The translations under genes were made by a program, and so were the position numbers. From the NCBI GenBank assembly GCA_000934665.2, contig JYFJ02000417.1, positions 1 through 64,000 of the forward strand: a stretch of DNA of 64,000 nt, written 5' to 3'. Positions 28,567-42,104 of the stretch are shown here, piece by piece. Within the stretch, counting starts at the first letter, position 1. Each line of letters begins with the position of its first letter. The stretch comes from Catajapyx aquilonaris. Lineage: Eukaryota. Below the pieces are notes generated by a model. That model was not told where the DNA came from and did no database searches. It was given only the letters and a program-made list of their open reading frames with translations.

Positions 28567-31500
28567 ATGGTCTGGGGCTTCGTCACCTGCGGGCCGAACG
28601 AGGCCCTGGTCGTCTCAGGTAAAAATATTCGTCGCACACAAAAACGTTCGAACAAAAATGAATGAATAGAACGAATGTCATACAAAAGTACAGTATGTAA
28701 TTAGCATCAATGTTCTATTTTTTGAGGGTACTTTACAACGACTATCTTAACGTGTAAATAATTAACTCCCACTGGAGATGCCTAACGAGAGCGCTGTAAG
28801 GTAAACATGCCGACCACACCCAGCCGCAGCCGCACTAATTTTAGCTGCGGACTACGTTCAACTGAAATCAAGCTGCGGAAATAACAATATGCGTTCAGAC
28901 AGTATTGTTAAAATGGATTAAGATTCATTAATAATGCGGGGATGGACGCAGCATCAAATGTCGTGAAATGGTTACGACGGAACGACATTTGATGAATCCA
29001 CCCCCTAGTTTTGTTAATTAGCTCTTAACTACTGTCATAATCAGAGCAATGCAACTAGTATCATATTTAATCTCTCGAGGGGGACACGGTGGCCGAGTGG
29101 TTAGCGCCGCAGCCTTCCACCTCTAAGGTCCCGAGTTCGATCCCCGGGTCGGACGGAGGAGACTTATGTGGATAGAGTTTCGATGGGTTCTCTCCGTGTT
29201 CGCGTGGGTTTTCTCGGGGTTCTCCCGTTTCCTCCCGCAATCAAAATCCATCACATTACAGGCAAATAATTAAAGTCGGTTATTCAAAAGATGATCCCCT
29301 AAGAGGCCCAAGGGGCCTATCACGGGGTATCCATTATTACTGTCATAATCAGAGCAATGCAACTAGTATCATATTTAATCTCCAGTTAATTTAATTAAAC
29401 TTTGAATATCCCGTGATTAAGCATTAATGCGTTAAGTTTGAATACGACGCACACAGGGAGCATAAAATATTGTCAAATGTGATCATGCGTGCTTCTCAAA
29501 CAATGGCGGGAAAGTACTGCAATAAATAGTGCATGAATTTGCATCAATAATGTACTGGCATCGTTATTAGTAGAAGCACCTGTCACTTTAACGGCTGGAG
29601 TGTGCGAAACGTGGCGGATAAAAATAAAGGCACGGACGACCTTGCATGCCATGTTTAATGTTTAAAATAGCTACGTAGGAACTGACATGATATGAATTAT
29701 GTACGACTTGTTACTGGGCTGCTGGGATTAAACGCAATTGCAATTATTTGTGTGTAACAAACACCGATTGCTTACAGGATGCTGCTACACCAAGCCATTG
29801 TTGGTTCCTGGAGGAAGAGCATTCGTTTGGCCTGCGATACAGCGGGTACAAAGGTCAGATTTGGCTTAATTGTACCGTGCACTTGCCATATTTAAAGAAA
29901 AAATGTCATTTAATTTTTAAAAAATTCTGCAGGATTTCTCTGAACACCATGACCCTACAGGTGGACAGCCCGACGGTTTACACAAGTCAGGGCGTCCCCA
30001 TTTCGGTGACTGGAATCGCACAGGTCAGCAACCCTGCCTCGTTTTAAATTCCCGCATGTACTTTTAGACGCTTGATTTTGCGTGTAGGTCAAGATCCAGG
30101 GACAGAACGAGGAGATGCTTCTGGCCGCCTGCGAGCAGTTCCTGGGCAAGCATGAGCACGAGATACAAAACGTGGCTCTCGAGACATTGGAAGGTCACCA
30201 GCGGGCCATCATGGGATCCATGACAGTCGAGGTCAGTTTTGACTTCCAATCTAAAATTTGCATCATCATGTCTTTCTGGCCAGAGGGGAAAATCAATCGC
30301 GGCCAGCATTTTGCCTTGGCAGCTCTCAAAATCAATAAACAGGTTTCCACATTGATCATCAGGAGCGTAAACCGTGTCTCCGGGCAATGTAATCATGACA
30401 CCAAACATGCGACGGTAATGAAATATTGAGTAGCACTCGAGAGGATGAAGCACCAACCAGATAACTTATCACGCTTCCTGTTTGTATAACCGGGGAGGTG
30501 CTCGAGTCGCTTGATATGTCGATGCGTGTCATACAATGGGACAGGAAGTGGTCCAATTTCATGCTAATATTTCCTCCGTCGCGGCGGCGGCGTAACTCAA
30601 TTTGAGCACTTCCTTATTGAAAAAAAACCTAATTTTATTTCCATCCTGAAAATACTGCGAGAGGAAACAATGTTGCTGGGGCAGATGGAAATCTCTCGGG
30701 TAGCACCAAATTGGGGGGGGGGGGTGTAATTAAAGTGCCCTCATCTGCCCCCGTGAGGTTTGGCCTGGTTTCTCGGTGTGTGTTGTTGTTTTGTGTGATG
30801 CCTGTGGGAATTGGGAAGAGGAAGTGGGTGGAATAGGTGGGGGGAGAAAGCCGGGAACTTCCTGTTGGCCTAATTGCGGGTAATATGACGGCACCCAAGG
30901 CCACCAACCCGGTCATAACTAATTACACACTGACAGGCGATCATCTCGAATATTCCGGCATGCGACGGCTAATTTAAACATTAACCCGTTGCACATAAAG
31001 TTATGCTGCGAATCCGCACCAACTTACGTTCCATGATCCGCCTAGAATCCGTTTGCCACCATTGCGTCCTTCACCTTGCCCAGCTCCTTCTTCCTCGACT
31101 TCTCGTGCACGACTGCTGCGGATTAGACCCCAAAGGGCACCCAGAAACTGACAGAATGAGTGGAAACCGGACCATTTTGCTTCCCAGGCTTTCCCTCGTT
31201 CCTCCCACCCTTTTCCTTCACCCTTCTTGCCCCTTGAACTTGCGGCTAGGTTAAGGTGACTTTGGGACATACAAAAATCGATTGTCAACAATTGTGAAAG
31301 CTGCAATTGTTATGAAGCAATCATAAATCGGGAACGAGACAATGTGAAGATCTTCGTATAATAATTTTTTTTAAATGCAAGTTCCGCTTTTGTACATATT
31401 AATTCCCGCTGCTATTCCAGGAGATCTACAAGGACCGCAAGAAGTTCAGCAAGCAGGTGTTCGAAGTGGCTTCGTCCGATCTGGTCAACATGGGAATTAC

Positions 31501-34500
31501 GGTAGTATCCTACACGCTAAAGGACATCCGGGACGAGGAGGTCAGTCGTCTTCGTCATATCCCTTTCGTAGCGAGCTTTAGACCGCTTCTGCTAGATGTT
31601 AATACTCTAGAACTACCCCCTCCCTCTTCTAGAGCACAGTTTAATAATCTCCCCCATGTTTTTTCCTCCCATGTGCATGCTGCCATGGTCACATAAAAGG
31701 GCTCTCGGGTATGTTCGCTTCTTCACTTACTCCCGCAAAGGTGACAATTGCTCACAGTCAACTTGAATCTCGGATCCAACTCAAGTCGAGTACAAAAACA
31801 GCATGTTCGACCATTAGCGAAATAGCATGACTTCAAAATATAATAATTAGCAAGTATCGTAATCACAGCATGTAGTTGGATCTAGATTTTTAATTGATGG
31901 AAGAGCCAGGTTTTATTTTTAAAATTTTTTTTCGAAAAAAAAAAAGGAGTGCGATTACTGAAAACGTATTCTCTCTTTCACATCTGCCCGTCGTTGTTCC
32001 ACAAAGTCCTGGCATTCGTAAGATGCGTTACTTTCTCATGTAGTGAATTCGAGATTGTAGGCTCCCGCATGAAGTCTCGTAGGATTGCAATTAGCTTTTA
32101 AAAAAAATAATTAGTAAAGAAACAAAATTTTCATTTTGGGGATTCCAGGGCAGTGGTTCTCACTTTGTGTGGTCTTGTGTTTATTTTTCTTTTCTCATCG
32201 CTTGGATGCAGCTATTGCGAGCATTCCCTCCCACCCACAGTGCATCGCTCAGTACTGCGCTTTTTTCTATGTAACGTCTGCTTGCATCGTAAGCACCTTG
32301 TTATCTCAACATTACGCACTTATTCGAAAACGTGCATGTGGCTCCCGCTCTGTGCACTTTTGATATGTTCAAATGTGTCACTTCGGATTGGATCTAGTCC
32401 GATACGCAATTCAAACTACTAACACTATTTAAATATCCGGCTGGTTAACTTGACTGCAATTAAAGTGAATATTTGAACCTAGATTTAATTTTGTCAGAAG
32501 CACTCTTAGCCAATTATTTGGGGGGGACGGAACACCAGCTTTGACCGTTTTTTTGGGCACAATTGGTTAATATATCGGCTGCTTTTATAATTCCATGTCT
32601 TCCGGTGGCCTGGTTTACAGAAGGCGAAGGTTTGTTCCTTTGCATTTATACTAATAAATGTGTGTGGCTTCTTTTTTTTTCCGTTTAAGTGTTACATTTT
32701 ATAGCACATTTTGCACTGTTGCATAAAAATGTTTTGCTACGGGAACTTGGTTGCCGACTATTTCACAGTTACGTTAATTAATGGGCAACGTTCTCTCGTA
32801 ATGTTCGACATAAACGTTACAAGCTCTCGTTACAACCAGAGCGATTCATAATGCGCCGCATCCAAGTGGCTCATTTTGAGAACCAGTGCTCTCGAGTCTT
32901 AACTCTGTGAGCAACAACATACACGTACAGTAAAAGCACTCCTGATAATTATTTAGAGAAAGTGTTTCAGGAATAATTGTTAAAGACATTTACAGTAATT
33001 AGCACAACGTTTTGATATCTTTTTTTTTTTTGCACTTTTTATGCCTTCTGTACCTTTTACAACCGTTACGACCTTCCCCATCCAATTTTTTAATTATTAT
33101 TTCATTAAACGAGTCGATTAGCGATGTTCGGGAAAAATTCGTGCCACGAGTGGCCCTGCCTGCTGTCCACATCTAGCGAAAAACTCGAGTCGCCTGAAAT
33201 TTTAGGTACCAGTGGAATCTGCTTTTAATGCGTTTTTGTGAGCTGTTGTGACTCTCGATTTTCTTTCTATAGTAATTAATGAAGGTGGAAAAAAATAATT
33301 ATTTTGAAATGCTACATAATTTGCTCTCACACCAAAGGATGCTGCACCTCGATCAAGTGGGCAACGAGCAGGCACCGGCCCAAGGCGATGCATAGTACCG
33401 TATCCAGTTTCATTTTTTTTATTCTTCCTAACCACTAACCTACTTATTTTAATTCTTATGATTTCAACGTAGTTTTTGCATTACGTTCTTTACCATCACT
33501 GACATTATTTTTTTGATTTAAATTAGCACCGTCTTTTTTTGTTGGTTCGTGAGACGTCAAGTTTTGTGCAGTAGTAGATGAGCTGGTGTGTTTTCAGGGG
33601 TACCTGAAAGCGCTCGGGATGGCTCGAACCGCCGAGGTGAAGCGAGACGCCAGAATCGGAGAGGCGGAAGCTCGGAGGGACGCCACGATCAAGGAAGCAA
33701 TTGCGGAGGAGGAGCGAATGGCCTCGAGATTCCTGAACGACATTGAGATCGCAAAGGCTCAGAGAGACTTTGAACTCAAGAAGGCCGCATACGACGTCGA
33801 AGTCCAGACAAAGGTAACTACGCGATTAGTGCGGCGTAGATGTACGCTAATATGGGAATTTCCAGAAAGCGGATGCGGAGTTGGCCTACGAGCTTCAGGC
33901 AGCCAAGACGAGGCAGCGTATAAAAGAGGAGCAGATGCAGATCAAGGTGGTCGAGAGGGCCCAGGAGATTGCGGTTCAGGAGCAGGAGATCCAGCGGAAG
34001 CAGAATGAGCTGGACTCAACGGTGCGCAGGCCTGCCGAAGCCGAGAAGTACCGGTAAGTGCCTAGTAGGCTGTGCGCCGGCTGCGGATTACCATGGACGT
34101 CATTGCAGGCTGGAAAAGCTGGCCGAGGCGAACCGCAACCGGCTGATCCTCGAAGCGGAGGCTGAGGCCGAGGCGATTCAGGTGAAGGGCGAGGCCGAAG
34201 CGTACGCCATTGAGGTGCGTGCTAGAGCCGAGGCTGAGCAGATGGCGAAGAAGGCGGACGCCTGGAAGGAATACAAGGACGCCGCGATGGTCGACATGCT
34301 GCTGGACACACTGCCAAAGGTACGTATCCGCTCCGGTTCCGGCTGTGTACTAATCGCATTGTTTGGCAGATTGCGGCGGAGATAGCCGCCCCGCTCTCTC
34401 AGGCGAAGAAGATCACGATGGTGTCCACCGGAAAGGGGGAGGTGGGCGCCGCGAAGTTGACGGGCGAAGTGTTGGACATTATCACTCGGGTTCCGGAAGT

Positions 34501-35914
34501 GGTGAAGGCCATAACGGGAGTGGATATTGCCAGGGTGAGTATGTACGGCGGCGGAGGTGGGGGCGGGGGCGGCGGAGGGGAGGGAGGTGGCGGGGGAGGC
34601 GGTGGGATGGGCGCAGGGGGCGGGGGGAGGACAGGCGGAGGCCCCTTTGGCGGGGTGGCCATCTCTCCGCAGACCTCGCATCTGCCCCAACCCACCAGGG
34701 CCTGGTCCTCTCACGGGGATAGCAAGTAACTTTCTTCCACCGCTTTTAATTGGACTGCCATTTTTTTTTCTCTCGTTATAGAAAGGAAGCAACGATCATA
34801 CCACATACCGACGATTGTGAGCGTTTCTAGCTCAGTTTATAATTTAACCGCAGTTTATTGGATTAAATTAATTTTTTTTTTGGTTACATGTTGTTTCCTT
34901 ACTATTTGGGCGTCCAATTAGGCTTTACTGTCACGGGGGGGGTGATGTCTTTTTGCACGCACACTTGTCACTTCGTTGTTTGAGTCTCCATGTTTGGGCT
35001 TCATTGAACGAAGCTTCTGCCATCCAGAACTGCATTTAACCTTTTTATCACTTGTTAACGATCTTGTTAATTTAAAAGAAAGCTCCACCTTCCTGCTCAC
35101 AAGTTGTGCGCGACGATGAAAAAAATTGTTTCTGGATTTTTTGAAGTACAAAAAAAAAAATTGTAATTGCGATGCAGCAGGTGGAGTTTGTATGAATGTG
35201 TGAGTAGCTCGAGCTGTGATTGTACCAGTTTTAATTTTGTGAAAGGAATGTACGTAGGATTCGTACGGTTGGGACTCTTGCTTGGCTATGTAGTATTTGT
35301 TGCGTAGGCTCACTTTTTTCACTTTGTTGTTCTCTCTCGTCAATTGGCTGTCGTACTGAGCAGTTACGTAAAACGCAAACATGGAGATGAAAAGAGTGAC
35401 GCCCAAGCAACAACTATTTGACCCTTTCTTTTTCCTCCCATCCGCTGCGATGGGTTTCCAATTGAAAAATAAACATTTGCAAACAATGTTTGGCCCTCAC
35501 TCATTCGCACTTGTTGCATGGATAGCTTCCTTGCCTCCCTGTCCATTCTCTACATGTTCCGTCTACTTGGCCGCCGTGCGGCCCAAATTGGGACACTTTT
35601 GTAGTTTTTTTGGAAAAAGATTGATGTGTAGAGTGTGGTGTGGAGAAACAAAATCCTGGGCTTTTTAAATCACGCTTCTTTTCCGTGTGGGGTCACTTTC
35701 CTTGGACACATTAGGGCGGAAGACCACCCAAGCTGGACACTAGCATTGCTCCCCTGAAGCAACCGCAATCGGCGCATGTGCATGCGCAGACTCACTCTCA
35801 TGCTTTGGGAAGGTTTCACTGTGCTCCATAAGCCGGGTTTGGGGGAAGGTTGAAAAGGCAATTCTGCGAGAGAGAGCAAAATTGTCCCCTTTGCAGACGA
35901 TCCACACGGCTTGA
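28567..35914 (+). CDS. FLOT1: Flotillin-1. Exons ~28567-28618, 29778-29852, 29933-30022, 30088-30231, 31421-31540, 33598-33812, 33866-34052, 34109-34319, 34370-34534, 35897-35914
   Basis: [111 protein letters not shown] repeats; last exon inferred. Confidence 0.96.
29075..29337 (+). mobile_element. tRNA-derived SINE with a V-domain-like core
   Basis: A box TGGCCGAGTGG, B box GTTCGATCC, core gttctctccgtgttcgcgtgggttttctcggggttctcccgtttcctccc; flanked by a 45-bp direct repeat. Confidence 0.88.
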
Positions 35915-37600
35915 AGACGGGAGGGGGACATGTCGCAAGTGGAGGTCCGGATAGAAGACGAAGATGGAGAGGAAATTGATGACGAGGGGGAGGACGGAGG
36001 CAACTGGAGCCTGCAGGGTCACGCCGTCCTACGCGGATCCTGCAAGTCGCTCAGACGCACCCCAAGCCCCAATTACACAACCGTCACCAGTGTCACACTC
36101 ACGCCCTTGGCTCCCCCGAACAATCCGTTTCCTCGGCCATCTCCACCTCCCACGTTAACCTAAAAGGGTCGCATCATGTCATCGCCATTGACGCTCTGCA
36201 CCGTTCTGCCGTGGATCCCACCGTGAAAAATTGAGCTGCAATGACCTTGACATGACGCGACCTCCGATCCCCCTTTCCCCGTCTATTGTTGCGCCATTTG
36301 CTGCCTTTCGGATCAATATGTAGACACCTCCCCCACCTTTATTTTTTTGCTTCTAGTCGTCACCGCCCTCTTTGACACCACAATTTGCAAGAGCATATTT
36401 TTCACTCTCGACTACTGTTGCGCTGTTTTTTCGCTACAGCGCATCATACTGCGGAACAATTAGCTGGGTGTACGCCCAGCGCTTTGTAATCTCAGGGCGG
36501 CAAATTACCGTAATTTCCATTATTGAATCCTTCCGTGGGCCGCATTAAAAGGGAAAGGGTCCCAACTGGCAAATATTGCGGCCAATACTTGCCCACGTCT
36601 GGTTCCATGGCCTGCCAACTTCCAGCTACTGAGGCCGAGTCCCTAAGTCATGCCCCGCGCTAATTACATTTCCTCGTTAAAGACTCGTTGCTCTTTTCAC
36701 TTTCCATGACCAGCGAGTTGAGCAGCTTCACGTTTTTCAGTCACGACGAGTAGATATTTTTCTCTCCCACTATTATAAATGTACGTTGTATTCGACTAAC
36801 CCTCTCTATTTTTAAATGGTACTTAACATCCCGAAATGTGTCATATGAGAGACGTGTATGTCTGATATCGTATCGTGTTGTGCCAAGCTTAGGTCTTGTG
36901 CCGCGTTCCCTATTTTGGATTCGACAACAATGCGACCGGCTGTAAACGGGAAAAGAAATTCCAAGTGCAACTTATAATAACCATTGTTCAGGTGAAAACC
37001 GCTTGGGCCTTTGCAAAGTTTTTTGCAGAAAACCGCACACAAGAGCAAGTAGTGGTTGTACGTAGCAGTGTGTGTTGTACAATGTACTGTCAAAGCTATT
37101 AGATCTGAAACTATTGTACTCTGAAAGGAATATATACAAAATGATTATATTATATGTGGGTCCGCTTGGAATATTATAATAAGGGACCATTATGTAAAAC
37201 CCGCAAATTATAAAAATGTATGTCACGCATCAGCCGCTTTATTCATCCTGATCCGGTTTAACAAAAATACGCTCCGTACCCTGCAATAAATAAACTACCT
37301 GTACATTACATACAAAAAAACCGCCTGCCCGAATCTACCGCGCCCGTTAAAAAGGTGCGGCAGAAACATTTTTGATACCATACACGGATATGTGTCGTCA
37401 GCAGGGAATATCAGTTTTCTAAAAACAATTCGCACAAAAATATATTCTTGACAAGAGTTACGGCCATCCAGTTAATTACCCGAGGAAGAGTTGATCGCTG
37501 GCTGTAATTTCCCGGATGGCCGCTCAATAATATAGGAATGACTTTCTTTTTGAGACCTCATTTGATACGATGCTCGTGGAAGTGACCACGTGGTTTCTGG

Positions 37601-39601
37601 CTAGACTTTCGGAAGTATGGAGTAAACGTGCCGGTGGATAGAACCTGCGATGTTGGATGACGACCGGTTCAGCGCGAACTTCAGGAAGAGGAGCATTAGG
37701 ATCGCACCGGATGCGATGTACAGAGCCAGGCAGAGCGATACGTCCGCGAGGCTGAACAGCGACGAGGTCAGCTGCTGTTTGGGTTCAACCGAGGGGGATC
37801 GGCGGCCTCGCCAGACCCGCCTGGCTTCCGTCTCCTCCTGTTCGATCCCGCTAAAACTGATCGCATCTCTGCTGTACATCCGCATCAGGAAGCCCCAAAC
37901 CTCCTCCTCGTCCCAGTCACTCCCGCGACGACAGTACGGACATGCTTCAGCGTCCGGAAACAATCCTTTCAGCCGCTGCGGGTCGTCCGTCGCCGACTTT
38001 GCAATCCGGACGCTCACTTTGTTGTGCGCTCGCCATAGCCACAGTGCTGCCTCGCGATTGGTCGCAACCGTCGGCATCTGATCATACCGAGCCATCTCCT
38101 GGAAGTGCGAGGAGCAGTCGGCGCATCCGAAGAAGTACTGGACGTACCCGAGGATCAGGGGCAGGACCGTGGGCGGCCCCAGGGTCGTGAGAGTGTGGAA
38201 GGTTTGCCACAGTCCGCACGGGTAGCCTCGGAGATGCGGCTGGCTGCCACGACATCCCTGCCATGTTTGCGGCGTCGCGGCCCAGGGACGCAACCGCTCT
38301 TCCTCATGCCGCAGGAACGAACCAAGAGCCGCTCCGGAAACGTCCCGACCTTGCGCCGCCAGCCAGTGATCCACCGAGCGCAACCAGCCCAAAACAGGCG
38401 GCCGGCTTGGGAAGTACCTGCCAAAAAACCGCAATTACGAGCCGCACATTTGCAAGTACCACAACTTACATTACGAGCAATCCGACGTATTTCCTTAACG
38501 CTTCGAGCGCATCGCCCTTGATGGTCTTATGCAGCGTGACCTCATGCGATAGCGAGTACTTCAACGCCAGCTCCAGGTCGCCCAAGTACACCCGATTCGC
38601 ATCGAATGGGATTGGGCCCGGTTGCGACCCAGACGGTCCCTGCCCTGCCCCCGAGTCCGCCGATGGACTCTCTTCCGTCCGCAGTCCCAGCTGCCCTAGA
38701 ACCGCCGCCCGGACATCCCCGATGGCGTCCACCGTCTTGTAAGGCACATGCGGGGTATCCCGATGGAAAAACAGGAGCTTGGGTGGGTCAGCACCAGGAC
38801 GGTCGACCCACCGTACCGCGACCTGTCCCCGCCAGCTGTCCAAATCCAACGCAAGGCTGCGACCCAGGTAGGACCTGGCATCCTCCACGATAACGACTAG
38901 GTGGGTAACAGACAGCGGCACGACCCGCCACGCACCGTCCAAGCTCCGGCTATCCGAATTCCTGCAAAGGTAACGACCCATTAAAGCCCGGCTAATAGCC
39001 TATAAAATGTTTGTTAGGCAACTAACGACATGGGCATTAACGTGGGCCAATCTCCGGATGTCCCCCGCTTTTCTTGTTCCTGCAGGAAGTGGACCACGGA
39101 TTCCATCAGGGAATGAGCGTCCGTGGGTCCGATCAGCGGAATGTTGGTTCCCAGCTGTCCGGGTTTTGCGCCACTACCGAAGAGCTTAATGGACGGGTAG
39201 GCCAGGATCTCGTAGTCACGACAGACGCCGTTGTTGTCCTCAGCGGCGCAGTCCATGGCACCGATGCGGACGACCCTCTCCCAACCTGTAAGTAGTACAC
39301 CGTGTCAAGTGCGGTGGTTCATGACCTGGGACGTGACCTCCCCCTGACCTGCCATCCTCCTGGCGAGTCCCTTGTAGGTGGGTGCGAATGCGTGGCAGTG
39401 TCCGCACCAGCTGCTGTAGAACTCCATGGCCCAGGCGGTGGGCGACCCCAGCAGTGCTCGAGGCAGGGTGGTGGAGTTGAGCACCCTGACCCCGTCCCCC
39501 GCCGAGTACAGCTCCTGTCCTGACCTCAGGGAGGCGGCCGGGAGGGCAAGGGTCATCGAGGACAGGGTCAGGAGGAAGAGGAGGAGAAGGGAGCGGGACA
39601 T
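37601..39601 (-). CDS. QSOX: Quiescin sulfhydryl oxidase. Exons 39601-39349, 39285-39027, 38961-38470, 38417-37601
   Basis: Signal peptide, thioredoxin EFYSSWCGHC, Erv domain GCRGS..RGYPCGLWQTFH, FFGCADC, LWLWRAHNKV, CPYC, C-terminal TM helix. Confidence 0.96.
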
Positions 39602-42104
39602 GTTCTCCGGCCGACGATTGTTGTTCGACTGAGCCGTGTTTGGAGTGGCTGGCCGNTACAATGGCACATCACCTGAGTTTCAGTCTCTAATCGCAGGCAC
39701 AAGCGGGCACAAGCCCGTTTCCCCATGCCCAGAGCCTGTCTTTCATAATTGGCGGGAAATTTTGTCATCCCGGTGACGTCACTACCGCTGCGCTATAATT
39801 GGCCCGATCCGTTATGGCGCTACCTGTAGGCTTCTATATACTTTGGGTGGCAGCAGGTGAGTCGACGAGGCAGGGTTGCCAACCAAAGCTTACTGGTTGC
39901 CAACCCCCTCGTGAGAAGTAGCCCGCCCTTTTCAAAATCTGATTTATACACATTATGCAGGAAGTCACGATTGTTAGGTTCAACAATGCGACTGGGGGGA
40001 TTCCATGCGAAAATAGCGCGACCTTGTCAACGCGGAAGGTCGCGCCCGCCTCATAAACACCAAGGCGGATGATCCAATAATAATAATAATAACAACCCTC
40101 CCACAGTAGTTAACTAGCAACTACTACAAAAGGGCTGGTTTTGTTTGCCAAGCACTTTTGCAGGCGAATATTATTCACGGATAACGGGTAATACAGATAA
40201 GAAACCGCGATATGGGGCAGCAGCTTCACCAGGGTCACTCTCTGGAATCCACAGGCCAACCCTGCCAAGAATCGGCTCGTGGCAACAACAATCGTCCTTG
40301 CAACGTACACTATAGACCATGGATATTCAACTGGCGGCCAGCGGTCCGGATCCGGACCGCGACGTAATTTTGTCCGGACCGCGACGATATACAGGACAGT
40401 TTGAAATAGCATTAGAAATTACTAATTCATGATTTTTTTTGGAAAAAGTGCTACCAATTTCATCAAATACACACCCATTCAAATCTCCCACTTTCACCTA
40501 AGCTCGTGTGACCTTCTACCCCCCCCCCCCCNGGGGGGGTTCCGGACCTTCAATGGCCCAGGAAAGGTAAATACTGGACCTTGTCATAAACAAGTTGAAT
40601 ACCCCTGCTATAGACAGTAAACATCACAGTAAACGTGTCAGTAGTGTTCAATAATTCTTTAGTTCCAACAGAATTAGTTCAAGATAATCGGGATTTGGCA
40701 CCAATGCGGGCCATTAGCAACCTGTATAGTAGTGGGCTGGGTCCGGACCGGATCCAGTTGGAATAGTATTGGCTATTTCAAGCAGATTGTAGTAGTTATC
40801 CTGTAGTGGTTCTCATAATATTTATTAGCGCTATTTGTGCTGAGCTTGTTTGAATATCCGGAGAATCCGGACCCGTTCATCCGGACTGATGTATACAGGG
40901 CGCATTATTTGGCGTAACTGCTGGCCGCACAATGACGAGGCAATAAGTGTTGCAATGGAAATATGTCTTCCGGCCATGCAAGTACGCCCGTGTATGTTGT
41001 GTAATAAATGTCAAAGCACGCAGTGTGTGCTTATTGTTGTGTGCTGTCCGATATGCACGAGTTGGCGTAAACTGCGCGTAACTTGTCCTGTCAGCAGCAT
41101 CCATCAGTAGATGTTGCACCGGACAGCACATATTCACTTCGAGGGAATGAATATAAAAATGCCGATCGTTCACTCCAGCAACCGGTCTCAAAGAGGAGAA
41201 ACCTATTTGCTGGTTCCCTTTTTTTTTACTGAACCACCTTGGTGCTTAATATATTGTGATAAAATCCACATTTTTGCAAAGAATAACTGAAGCTCAGCAG
41301 ATTCCAACCTCAATTTCCTCCCCAACCCTTCGCCAAAAAATCGCGTGATATTCCTGGTTCTGCCCACACGAAGTCCTTCCTTTCCTACCCGTCCATCATG
41401 CCGGCATGAAATGTGCAAATAATTTCGCAACACAGTCACGCCCGCCGGTCACGCCTGAAGGGCAACATATTCCGCACAAAAAAAAAAAGAGCAAGAGAAC
41501 TAACTCTTATCACGAATAAATTCAATCTCTTTTCAACCATACCCGCGGCCAGATGGCAGGCACATCCAAGAGAGAGAAGTAACACCACCGTCACGGAGGC
41601 TGAATGCAGGCCATTAGCAACTTGTAGTATAGTGGGCTGGGTCCGGACCGGGTCCAGTTGGAATAGTATTGGCTATTCCAAGCAAGTCTGTCCTCATATT
41701 CGTGTACATTCGTGTTCATATTCGTGTACGTAGTTGTCTCCCCAGTTAACAAAAAAGAGTTGTACAATTTTTATCACAATTTAATACAAAACATCTTATT
41801 AGAAATGCGCCACCTTTAAGGTCATTTTCCAGGCAGTCTGAATACGATTATGAGATTACGATCTGTTAAAAAATCTAGCATTGCTTGAAGCGGGTTAAGT
41901 GGATTGGCCACTCGCTCCTCAGACAAAATAATAACACACAATACCAAGAGTACTCTTGACAATACCCATCCCATGGCCGCAGCCACTGGGAACTAAGACA
42001 TCGAGCACTCCAAAAAAAAAGAAGGGGGGGGGGGGGNGGGGGAAAGAGAGGCAATACTTAAGAAAAATAAATGAACTAAGGATGGAAAATGTCTTCCATT
42101 CTTT

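Follow-up and report, generated by a model that had tools for sequence, protein, structure and literature searches.

In the Drosophila kelch gene, readthrough takes place at UGA-AUG (UGA-AGC in mosquitoes), and a 14-bp stem with a 268-nt loop is predicted 8 nt downstream (PMC3159437). Pancrustacea are reported to have abundant readthrough, and a centipede is not (PMC5100048); of 87 fly extensions with ribosome profiling, 82 show no similarity outside Diptera (10.64898/2026.07.13.738141). The two fly flotillins are themselves graded in a 2026 preprint (PMC13278127): Flo1 is a tier-2 readthrough candidate with a TAA stop and a 114-nt extension, called by one of three classifiers and, in the accessible part of the preprint, not in the conserved set, and Flo2 is both tier 2 and conserved. 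According to the same preprint, A at position +4 accompanies stronger termination. No paper on flotillin readthrough was found by title or abstract start, and the names and identifiers of Flo1 are absent from file 2 of the supplement to PMC5100048. As for the protein, the flotillin cage has its unstructured C-termini at the narrow end, where they may reach a second membrane; no readthrough form is described in the available text of that report (10.1101/2024.05.09.593390).

The feature presented in this study is an in-frame second ORF past the UGA of flotillin-1 in Catajapyx aquilonaris. As in kelch, the UGA is followed by A, and the 3' partner of the predicted stem is a distant segment within the second ORF; on the other hand, the kelch stem has 14 bp, follows a spacer of 8 nt, and is conserved in 12 species (PMC3159437), whereas the basal helix in Catajapyx has 6-8 bp, starts 4 nt past the stop, and is unstable between folds. 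Fly Flo1, the orthologue, has a last exon with its end at the corresponding position, but it has TAA and a 114-nt extension with a GC3 of 28.9% (PMC13278127), compared with TGA, 249 nt including the stop, and a GC3 of 65% (overall GC content, 60%) in Catajapyx. The Catajapyx stretch shares with the pancrustacean and neuronal extensions (PMC5100048; 10.64898/2026.07.13.738141) a UGA, a long 3' UTR, a GC-rich polar extension, downstream structure, and the absence of a distant homologue; it differs from them in that there is no C at +4, in that the first 100-150 nt are unstable when folded alone, and in being a prediction from one genome. The penultimate exon (34370-34534) aligns with residues 364-417 of human flotillin-1 in the cage structure (PDB 9bq2), and by analogy with that structure, the Catajapyx tail may be placed at the narrow end of the cage.

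All coordinates are those of the window, i.e., the whole 64-kb stretch of DNA that was analyzed. The gene consists of 11 exons and 445 codons in one open frame, and 10 of 10 introns are GT-AG according to the contig joints. Its product is approximately 85% identical over 445 residues to the best named insect flotillin-1 proteins, and its closest named flotillins are those of insects; a Pfam Flot match (E = 0.0005) covers part of the gene. The full-length similarity and the matching C-terminal end indicate that the gene is flotillin-1. The parts of the locus are as follows.

28567 to 34534, forward strand: flotillin-1 coding exons 1 to 10 (contig joints)
28567-28618, 29778-29853, 29933-30023, 30088-30231, and 31421-31540, forward strand: exons 1 to 5
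33338-33394, 33598-33813, 33866-34053, 34109-34319, and 34370-34534, forward strand: exons 6 to 10
34782 to 34820, forward strand: minor alternative last exon of 12 codons plus TGA, which bypasses the UGA under study (contig joint and sequence)
35897 to 35914, forward strand: coding part of the main last exon, TIHTA, and the first stop, TGA (35912-35914), followed by A (sequence and contig joint)
35915 to 36163, forward strand: in-frame second ORF of 82 codons plus TAA, the candidate readthrough extension, with an acidic tract followed by a Ser/Thr/Pro-rich part (sequence, coding score, and contig)
35930 to 35932, forward strand: in-frame ATG, 15 nt past the stop, which opens a rival 77-codon downstream ORF
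36164 to 37310, forward strand: remaining 3' UTR, with AATAAA at 37285 (contig and sequence)

Transcript evidence was taken from the contigs of one public run, which is not on record as RNA; that 14 introns, all bounded by GT-AG when read on one of the two strands, are missing from its contigs implies that it is RNA-derived. The run was used for joints, its depths were not used to rank parts of the gene, and contigs of this kind drop rare splice forms and rare variants. The joint from 34534 to 35897 (GT-AG) is present on a contig spanning 35896-37150 with zero letter differences and zero gaps. Because this joint-bearing contig runs to 37150 unchanged, the stop and the whole second frame lie on one spliced transcript. 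The acceptor ttgcag at 35896/35897 is followed by the codons ACG ATC CAC ACG GCT TGA, and TIHTA-TGA corresponds to the end of insect flotillin-1. Among 120 homologues, 77 (including 2 that read into the intron) end 7 residues past a G-V-D-I motif, as does the Catajapyx gene, mostly with SVHAG or SVHAA; since they share this 7-residue tail length, the Catajapyx stop is at the usual arthropod position. Four long tails among the 120 look unrelated to the Catajapyx extension. The last exon, its TGA, and the in-frame stretch to TAA at 36161-36163, as set out in the original prediction, are all present in the sequence.

The joint to the minor last exon (34533 to 34781) has a depth of 14.9, compared with 166.2 at the main one. 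If translation continued into the intron that follows the penultimate exon, it would add a Gly-rich tail of 64 codons up to a TAA (34535-34729, forward strand); a short tail read from the intron is present at this position in insect homologues. Counting the 34782 exon as well, three C-termini other than the readthrough one are possible. A 19-codon exon at 33338-33394 (forward strand) is spliced in the contigs, and homologues have there either no insert or 3-23 residues, mostly 3-4.

The second frame comprises 82 sense codons (35915-36160), and the stop context is TGA-AGA-CGG. The figure of 83 codons first given for it counts the TAA; the frame is open as claimed. The two other frames do close early (at 35952, and at 35977 and 35980), as had been noted, but reopen for 67 and 83 codons, so the stretch is stop-poor in all frames. 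Of 5000 dinucleotide shuffles each, 833 gave an open run of at least 82 codons when the stretch itself was shuffled, 547 when the segment 35915-36300 was, and 130 when the entire 3' UTR was, i.e., the chance of such an open length is 2.6-17%. Stop-to-stop intervals that long account for 257 of 5157 in the 64-kb window and for 2.8% of 73,460 in 800 kb of the genome. Frame length by itself is modest evidence. The sequence also confirms that the context is UGA-A and not the leaky UGA-C, which, as kelch illustrates, is a tendency of the readthrough class and no requirement.

The tail contains an acidic patch, four Ser/Thr-Pro sites, YTTV, and NPF (36122-36130); we take these motifs, putatively, to be ligands of the AP-2 and EH-domain type. 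NPF, a motif chosen post hoc, arose in 0.7% of whole and 2.5% of blockwise residue shuffles (100,000 each). Past the second stop, 20 further in-frame codons and a TGA (36164-36226, forward strand) lie beneath a strong hairpin and have a neutral coding score; double readthrough through 36161-36163 is possible but unsupported.

Coding potential was scored with a codon-position model trained on 80 genome stretches (800 kb) outside the window. The model is rough: between 24 and 41 kb, it placed 5 of the 11 flotillin exons in their correct frame and assigned another to the opposite strand. It called 35928-36153 as coding in the readthrough frame and made zero calls in the 3' UTR beyond 36163. The 82 codons score +13.1, or 0.053 per base, and eight flotillin exons range from 0.015 to 0.157 per base; the five other frames of the stretch score from -0.7 to -25.7, and with stops masked, the other sense frames reach +2.2 and -3.6 versus +13.1. 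Nineteen pieces of introns and UTRs, matched in length, free of overlap, and scored with the same frame convention, fall between -14 and -69. Shuffles that were both open and at least as high in score numbered 32, 46, and 35 of 3000 (joint p of approximately 0.01-0.015), and among shuffles already open, the score was reached in 6-8% (32/465, 46/577, and 35/556). The first 32 codons contribute 10.9 of the score and the last 50 contribute 2.2; i.e., the coding signal comes mostly from the acidic tract. The five codons before the ATG at 35930 score approximately zero, and the 20 codons past the second stop are about as neutral as the last 50 of the extension. In the genome sample, 24 of 70,951 stops precede such a frame: 12 have an acceptor, 5 score better in another frame, and 7 have neither, these 7 being by eye mostly ordinary exons or ATG starts. 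A three-frame test of 17 putative gene ends, too few for an estimate of readthrough across the genome, gave zero scores of at least 5 in any frame. An ORF-stop-ORF arrangement in locus L146 was rejected as an intron containing a stop and not a case of readthrough.

At the RNA level, a long-range stem that encloses the second ORF is predicted, which is new relative to the earlier account of this stretch. The predicted elements, together with the hairpin that follows, are listed below.

35919 to 35926, forward strand: 5' side of the basal helix, 4 nt past the stop, with its partner at 36143-36151 in some fold windows only
35962 to 35997, forward strand: 5' arm of the long-range stem, which is the acidic tract (pair probabilities of 0.74-1.0 in six of six folds; inverted repeat I3)
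36013 to 36043, forward strand: inner hairpin of 36013-36024 with 36033-36043 (pair probability of 0.92-1.0 in all six folds)
36081 to 36151, forward strand: 3' arm of the long-range stem, which is the Pro-rich tract with NPF (folds)
36166 to 36263, forward strand: second, stronger hairpin, 2-3 nt past the second stop, with 30-nt arms that are 80% complementary (inverted repeat I1)

The stem core (35962-35997 with 36081-36142), which was retained in 6 of 6 folds, begins 47 nt past the stop, and the partner of the 6-8-bp basal helix (35919-35924 with 36146-36151) varies with the fold window. Structure-stimulated readthrough of the kelch/alphavirus type has a conserved stem 7-9 nt past the stop with a distant 3' partner; here, a long-range stem is predicted, with a spacer of 4 nt and a variable basal helix. 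Statistical support for the predicted stem is moderate (p of about 0.01-0.05). Its stability was reached in 15 of 200 plain whole-region shuffles (z = -1.41), 11 of 300 block shuffles, and 1 of 300 peptide-preserving shuffles; in 10, 4, 4, and 2 of 200 local shuffles; in 3 of 200 and 5 of 200 local synonymous shuffles; and in 6 of 200 codon-order shuffles. The same test on four true exons gave 84, 57, 37, and 13 of 100, i.e., no excess stability. When the two arms were tested against each other as a duplex, the result was negative (791 of 1000), with a 5' block that ended at 35980 and so truncated the arm. Folded alone, the first 149 nt past the stop are unstructured (z = +0.35). The hairpin at 36166-36263 was matched in 0 of 500 shuffles (z = -5.2), and further stems follow it. 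The acidic and Pro-rich tracts had been read as protein-like, but the two tracts are complementary to each other as RNA. Because they are the arms of one predicted stem, they are not independent coding evidence; the stem could drive readthrough, or it could itself explain the protein-like look.

Homologues of the tail were not found in any search. A phmmer search of 1.84 billion representatives gave 6 matches, all long proteins with 6-10 matched stretches that we read as low-complexity, and 0 of 120 candidates scored when the tail was compared with longer proteins. The Atlas gave zero usable matches, Pfam gave one sub-threshold match, and tblastn and blastn against 80 flotillin loci gave 0 of 80 (best E = 0.12). 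This absence is expected, since 82 of 87 fly extensions are without a match outside Diptera. No repeat origin of the stretch was seen; it is single-copy in its own genome at the protein and DNA levels. The 80 flotillin loci come from a metagenome scan and have 60-80% identity; the arthropod-type five-codon last exon was recovered at 13 of them, 10 being distinct, and the other 67, which had different tails, ended early, or were ambiguous, were left out. The stop in the 10 distinct last exons is TAA in 7 and TGA in 3, and the second frames past it measure 3, 7, 7, 7, 12 or more, 16, 29, 36, 72, and 88 codons; neither a conserved stop nor a conserved second frame is present among the 13 distant arthropod-type loci, as one would expect if the extension were lineage-restricted. 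Since stop identity and frame length vary among these loci, ancient readthrough at the flotillin-1 stop is not indicated. Loci L011 and L013 have the TGA-AGA context of Catajapyx but differ from each other by a 5-nt indel directly past the stop, and the 88 codons of L032 correspond to 7 in its neighbour L033. Close neighbours interrupt both of the long distant frames (72 and 88 codons), and each of the two is strongly negative under the coding model. From these sequences, long frames appear to arise past the flotillin-1 stop without being conserved.

Among the same loci, L022 (785-895), an arthropod-type flotillin-1, has TAA followed by 36 in-frame codons with EREQLI, presumably a dileucine-like motif, and may be an independent readthrough candidate. 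Its extension has 57% GC versus 41% past the second stop and a score of +3.8, and alone among these sequences resembles the Catajapyx case in kind; its peptide does not match the Catajapyx tail. The length is similar to the 38 codons of the fly. Loci L060 and L036/L038, each with a 7-codon second frame, have a similar predicted hairpin approximately 10 nt past TAA (z = -2.2 and -1.7). The HRFL-like similarity of L018, L031, L032, and L033 is out of register in the alignment and was discarded.

We regard it as about an even bet that leaky termination at the flotillin-1 UGA yields a longer protein; the probabilities that we attach to this candidate and to its alternatives are judgements and not computed values. 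For the extended isoform originally proposed speak the identity of the gene, the real exon, the transcribed frame, and the coding score, and the contig shows a continuous transcript without visible editing or a competing joint; against it stand the A at +4 of the stop and the distant relatives, which do not keep the tail. The main alternative, which we find less likely, is that the stretch is the structured, GC-rich, non-coding start of the 3' UTR, in which a 5' arm rich in purines and a 3' arm rich in pyrimidines form an RNA stem that is a localisation or stability element or derives from an old inverted duplication. Read as codons, such arms would give Glu/Asp/Gly and Pro/Ser, and the GC richness would leave the frame open by chance. 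Each arm is indeed an inverted match of the other, the most stable structure is found past the second stop with more stems after it, so this UTR is structured regardless, and the chance of the open frame is as high as 17%. The neutrality of the codons past the second stop, equal to that of the last 50 of the extension, and the unconserved long open frames past the same stop in L013 and L032 point the same way. The score, however, prefers the readthrough frame over the other five, where pairing needs no three-base periodicity, and the joint chance is only about 0.01-0.015.

The frame might also encode a separate 77-residue protein that starts at the ATG at 35930 by reinitiation, an internal start, or a short transcript and shares the flotillin frame by coincidence. 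The coding call does begin at 35928, at this ATG, with the five preceding codons near zero; nevertheless, we consider this improbable, with no such small protein among the 1.84 billion representatives and a contig that enters the exon via the flotillin joint. Reinitiation after a frame of 445 codons is inefficient. Entry into the frame by a rare splice form downstream of the UGA is less to be expected still. Flotillin-1 already has alternative 3' ends, and in-phase AGs occur at 35924, 35945, 35972, 35987, 35993, 36017, and 36047, but these seven have 2-7 pyrimidines in 12 versus 10 at the used acceptor. The check for a downstream acceptor that the original prediction called for gave 0 of 14 joints within 35897-36163, in contigs that drop rare forms. 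Equally slight is the probability of recoding at the UGA, either to Trp through A-to-I editing or to selenocysteine. The UGA pairs with 36155-36158 at the foot of the long duplex in one fold window (probability of 0.69), but this pairing disappears in a longer window, and the covering contig, of a kind that drops rare variants, has no letter difference. A 5' G neighbour disfavours ADAR editing. The absence of a SECIS downstream, stated earlier, was borne out by an Rfam scan of 34500-37500, with 2 sub-threshold matches, neither a SECIS, and by a pattern search whose single match, at 36252, has the wrong fold.

If termination at the flotillin-1 UGA is leaky, a minority of ribosomes would pause at UGA-A, helped by the downstream RNA structure, and insert a near-cognate residue. 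Near-cognate residues at UGA are Trp, Cys, or Arg. With the tail, this residue would make 83 added residues, i.e., a protein of approximately 528 residues versus 445, and the extension would be lineage-restricted and derived from the 3' UTR. Whether this is readthrough as in other pancrustacean readthrough genes we judge to be evenly poised. More doubtful is a reading in which the 246 bases do double duty: the stem would cause readthrough, its arms would encode the acidic patch and NPF, a few subunits per cage would carry an EH-adaptor hook at the narrow end, and tails may have been gained several times in arthropods (Catajapyx, L022, and fly). The feature is real and better backed than the open frame alone indicated; as a case of readthrough, an already known mechanism, it is a candidate.

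Given that readthrough is common in insects and crustaceans, one more candidate is unsurprising. A tail would matter for flotillin biology because of where the C-termini are, at the cage's narrow end with possible contact to a second membrane; if a sub-stoichiometric share of subunits carried a tail with endocytic-type motifs, cage binding could be tuned. The gene would also add a cellular case in which a long-range stem drives readthrough at the poor context UGA-A. If the frame is untranslated, an unannotated pair of predicted RNA stems at the start of the flotillin 3' UTR remains.

The flotillin-2 paralogue, whose fly counterpart is a conserved readthrough candidate, is at G000:C865:16103-16246 (L168); its last exon was not found within that locus. 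In the window, a sulfhydryl oxidase gene (Erv1/Alr and FAD_SOX) at 37601-39680 on the reverse strand lies tail to tail with flotillin-1. Its contig begins at 37221, and its 3' UTR may therefore overlap that of flotillin-1 around the AATAAA at 37285.
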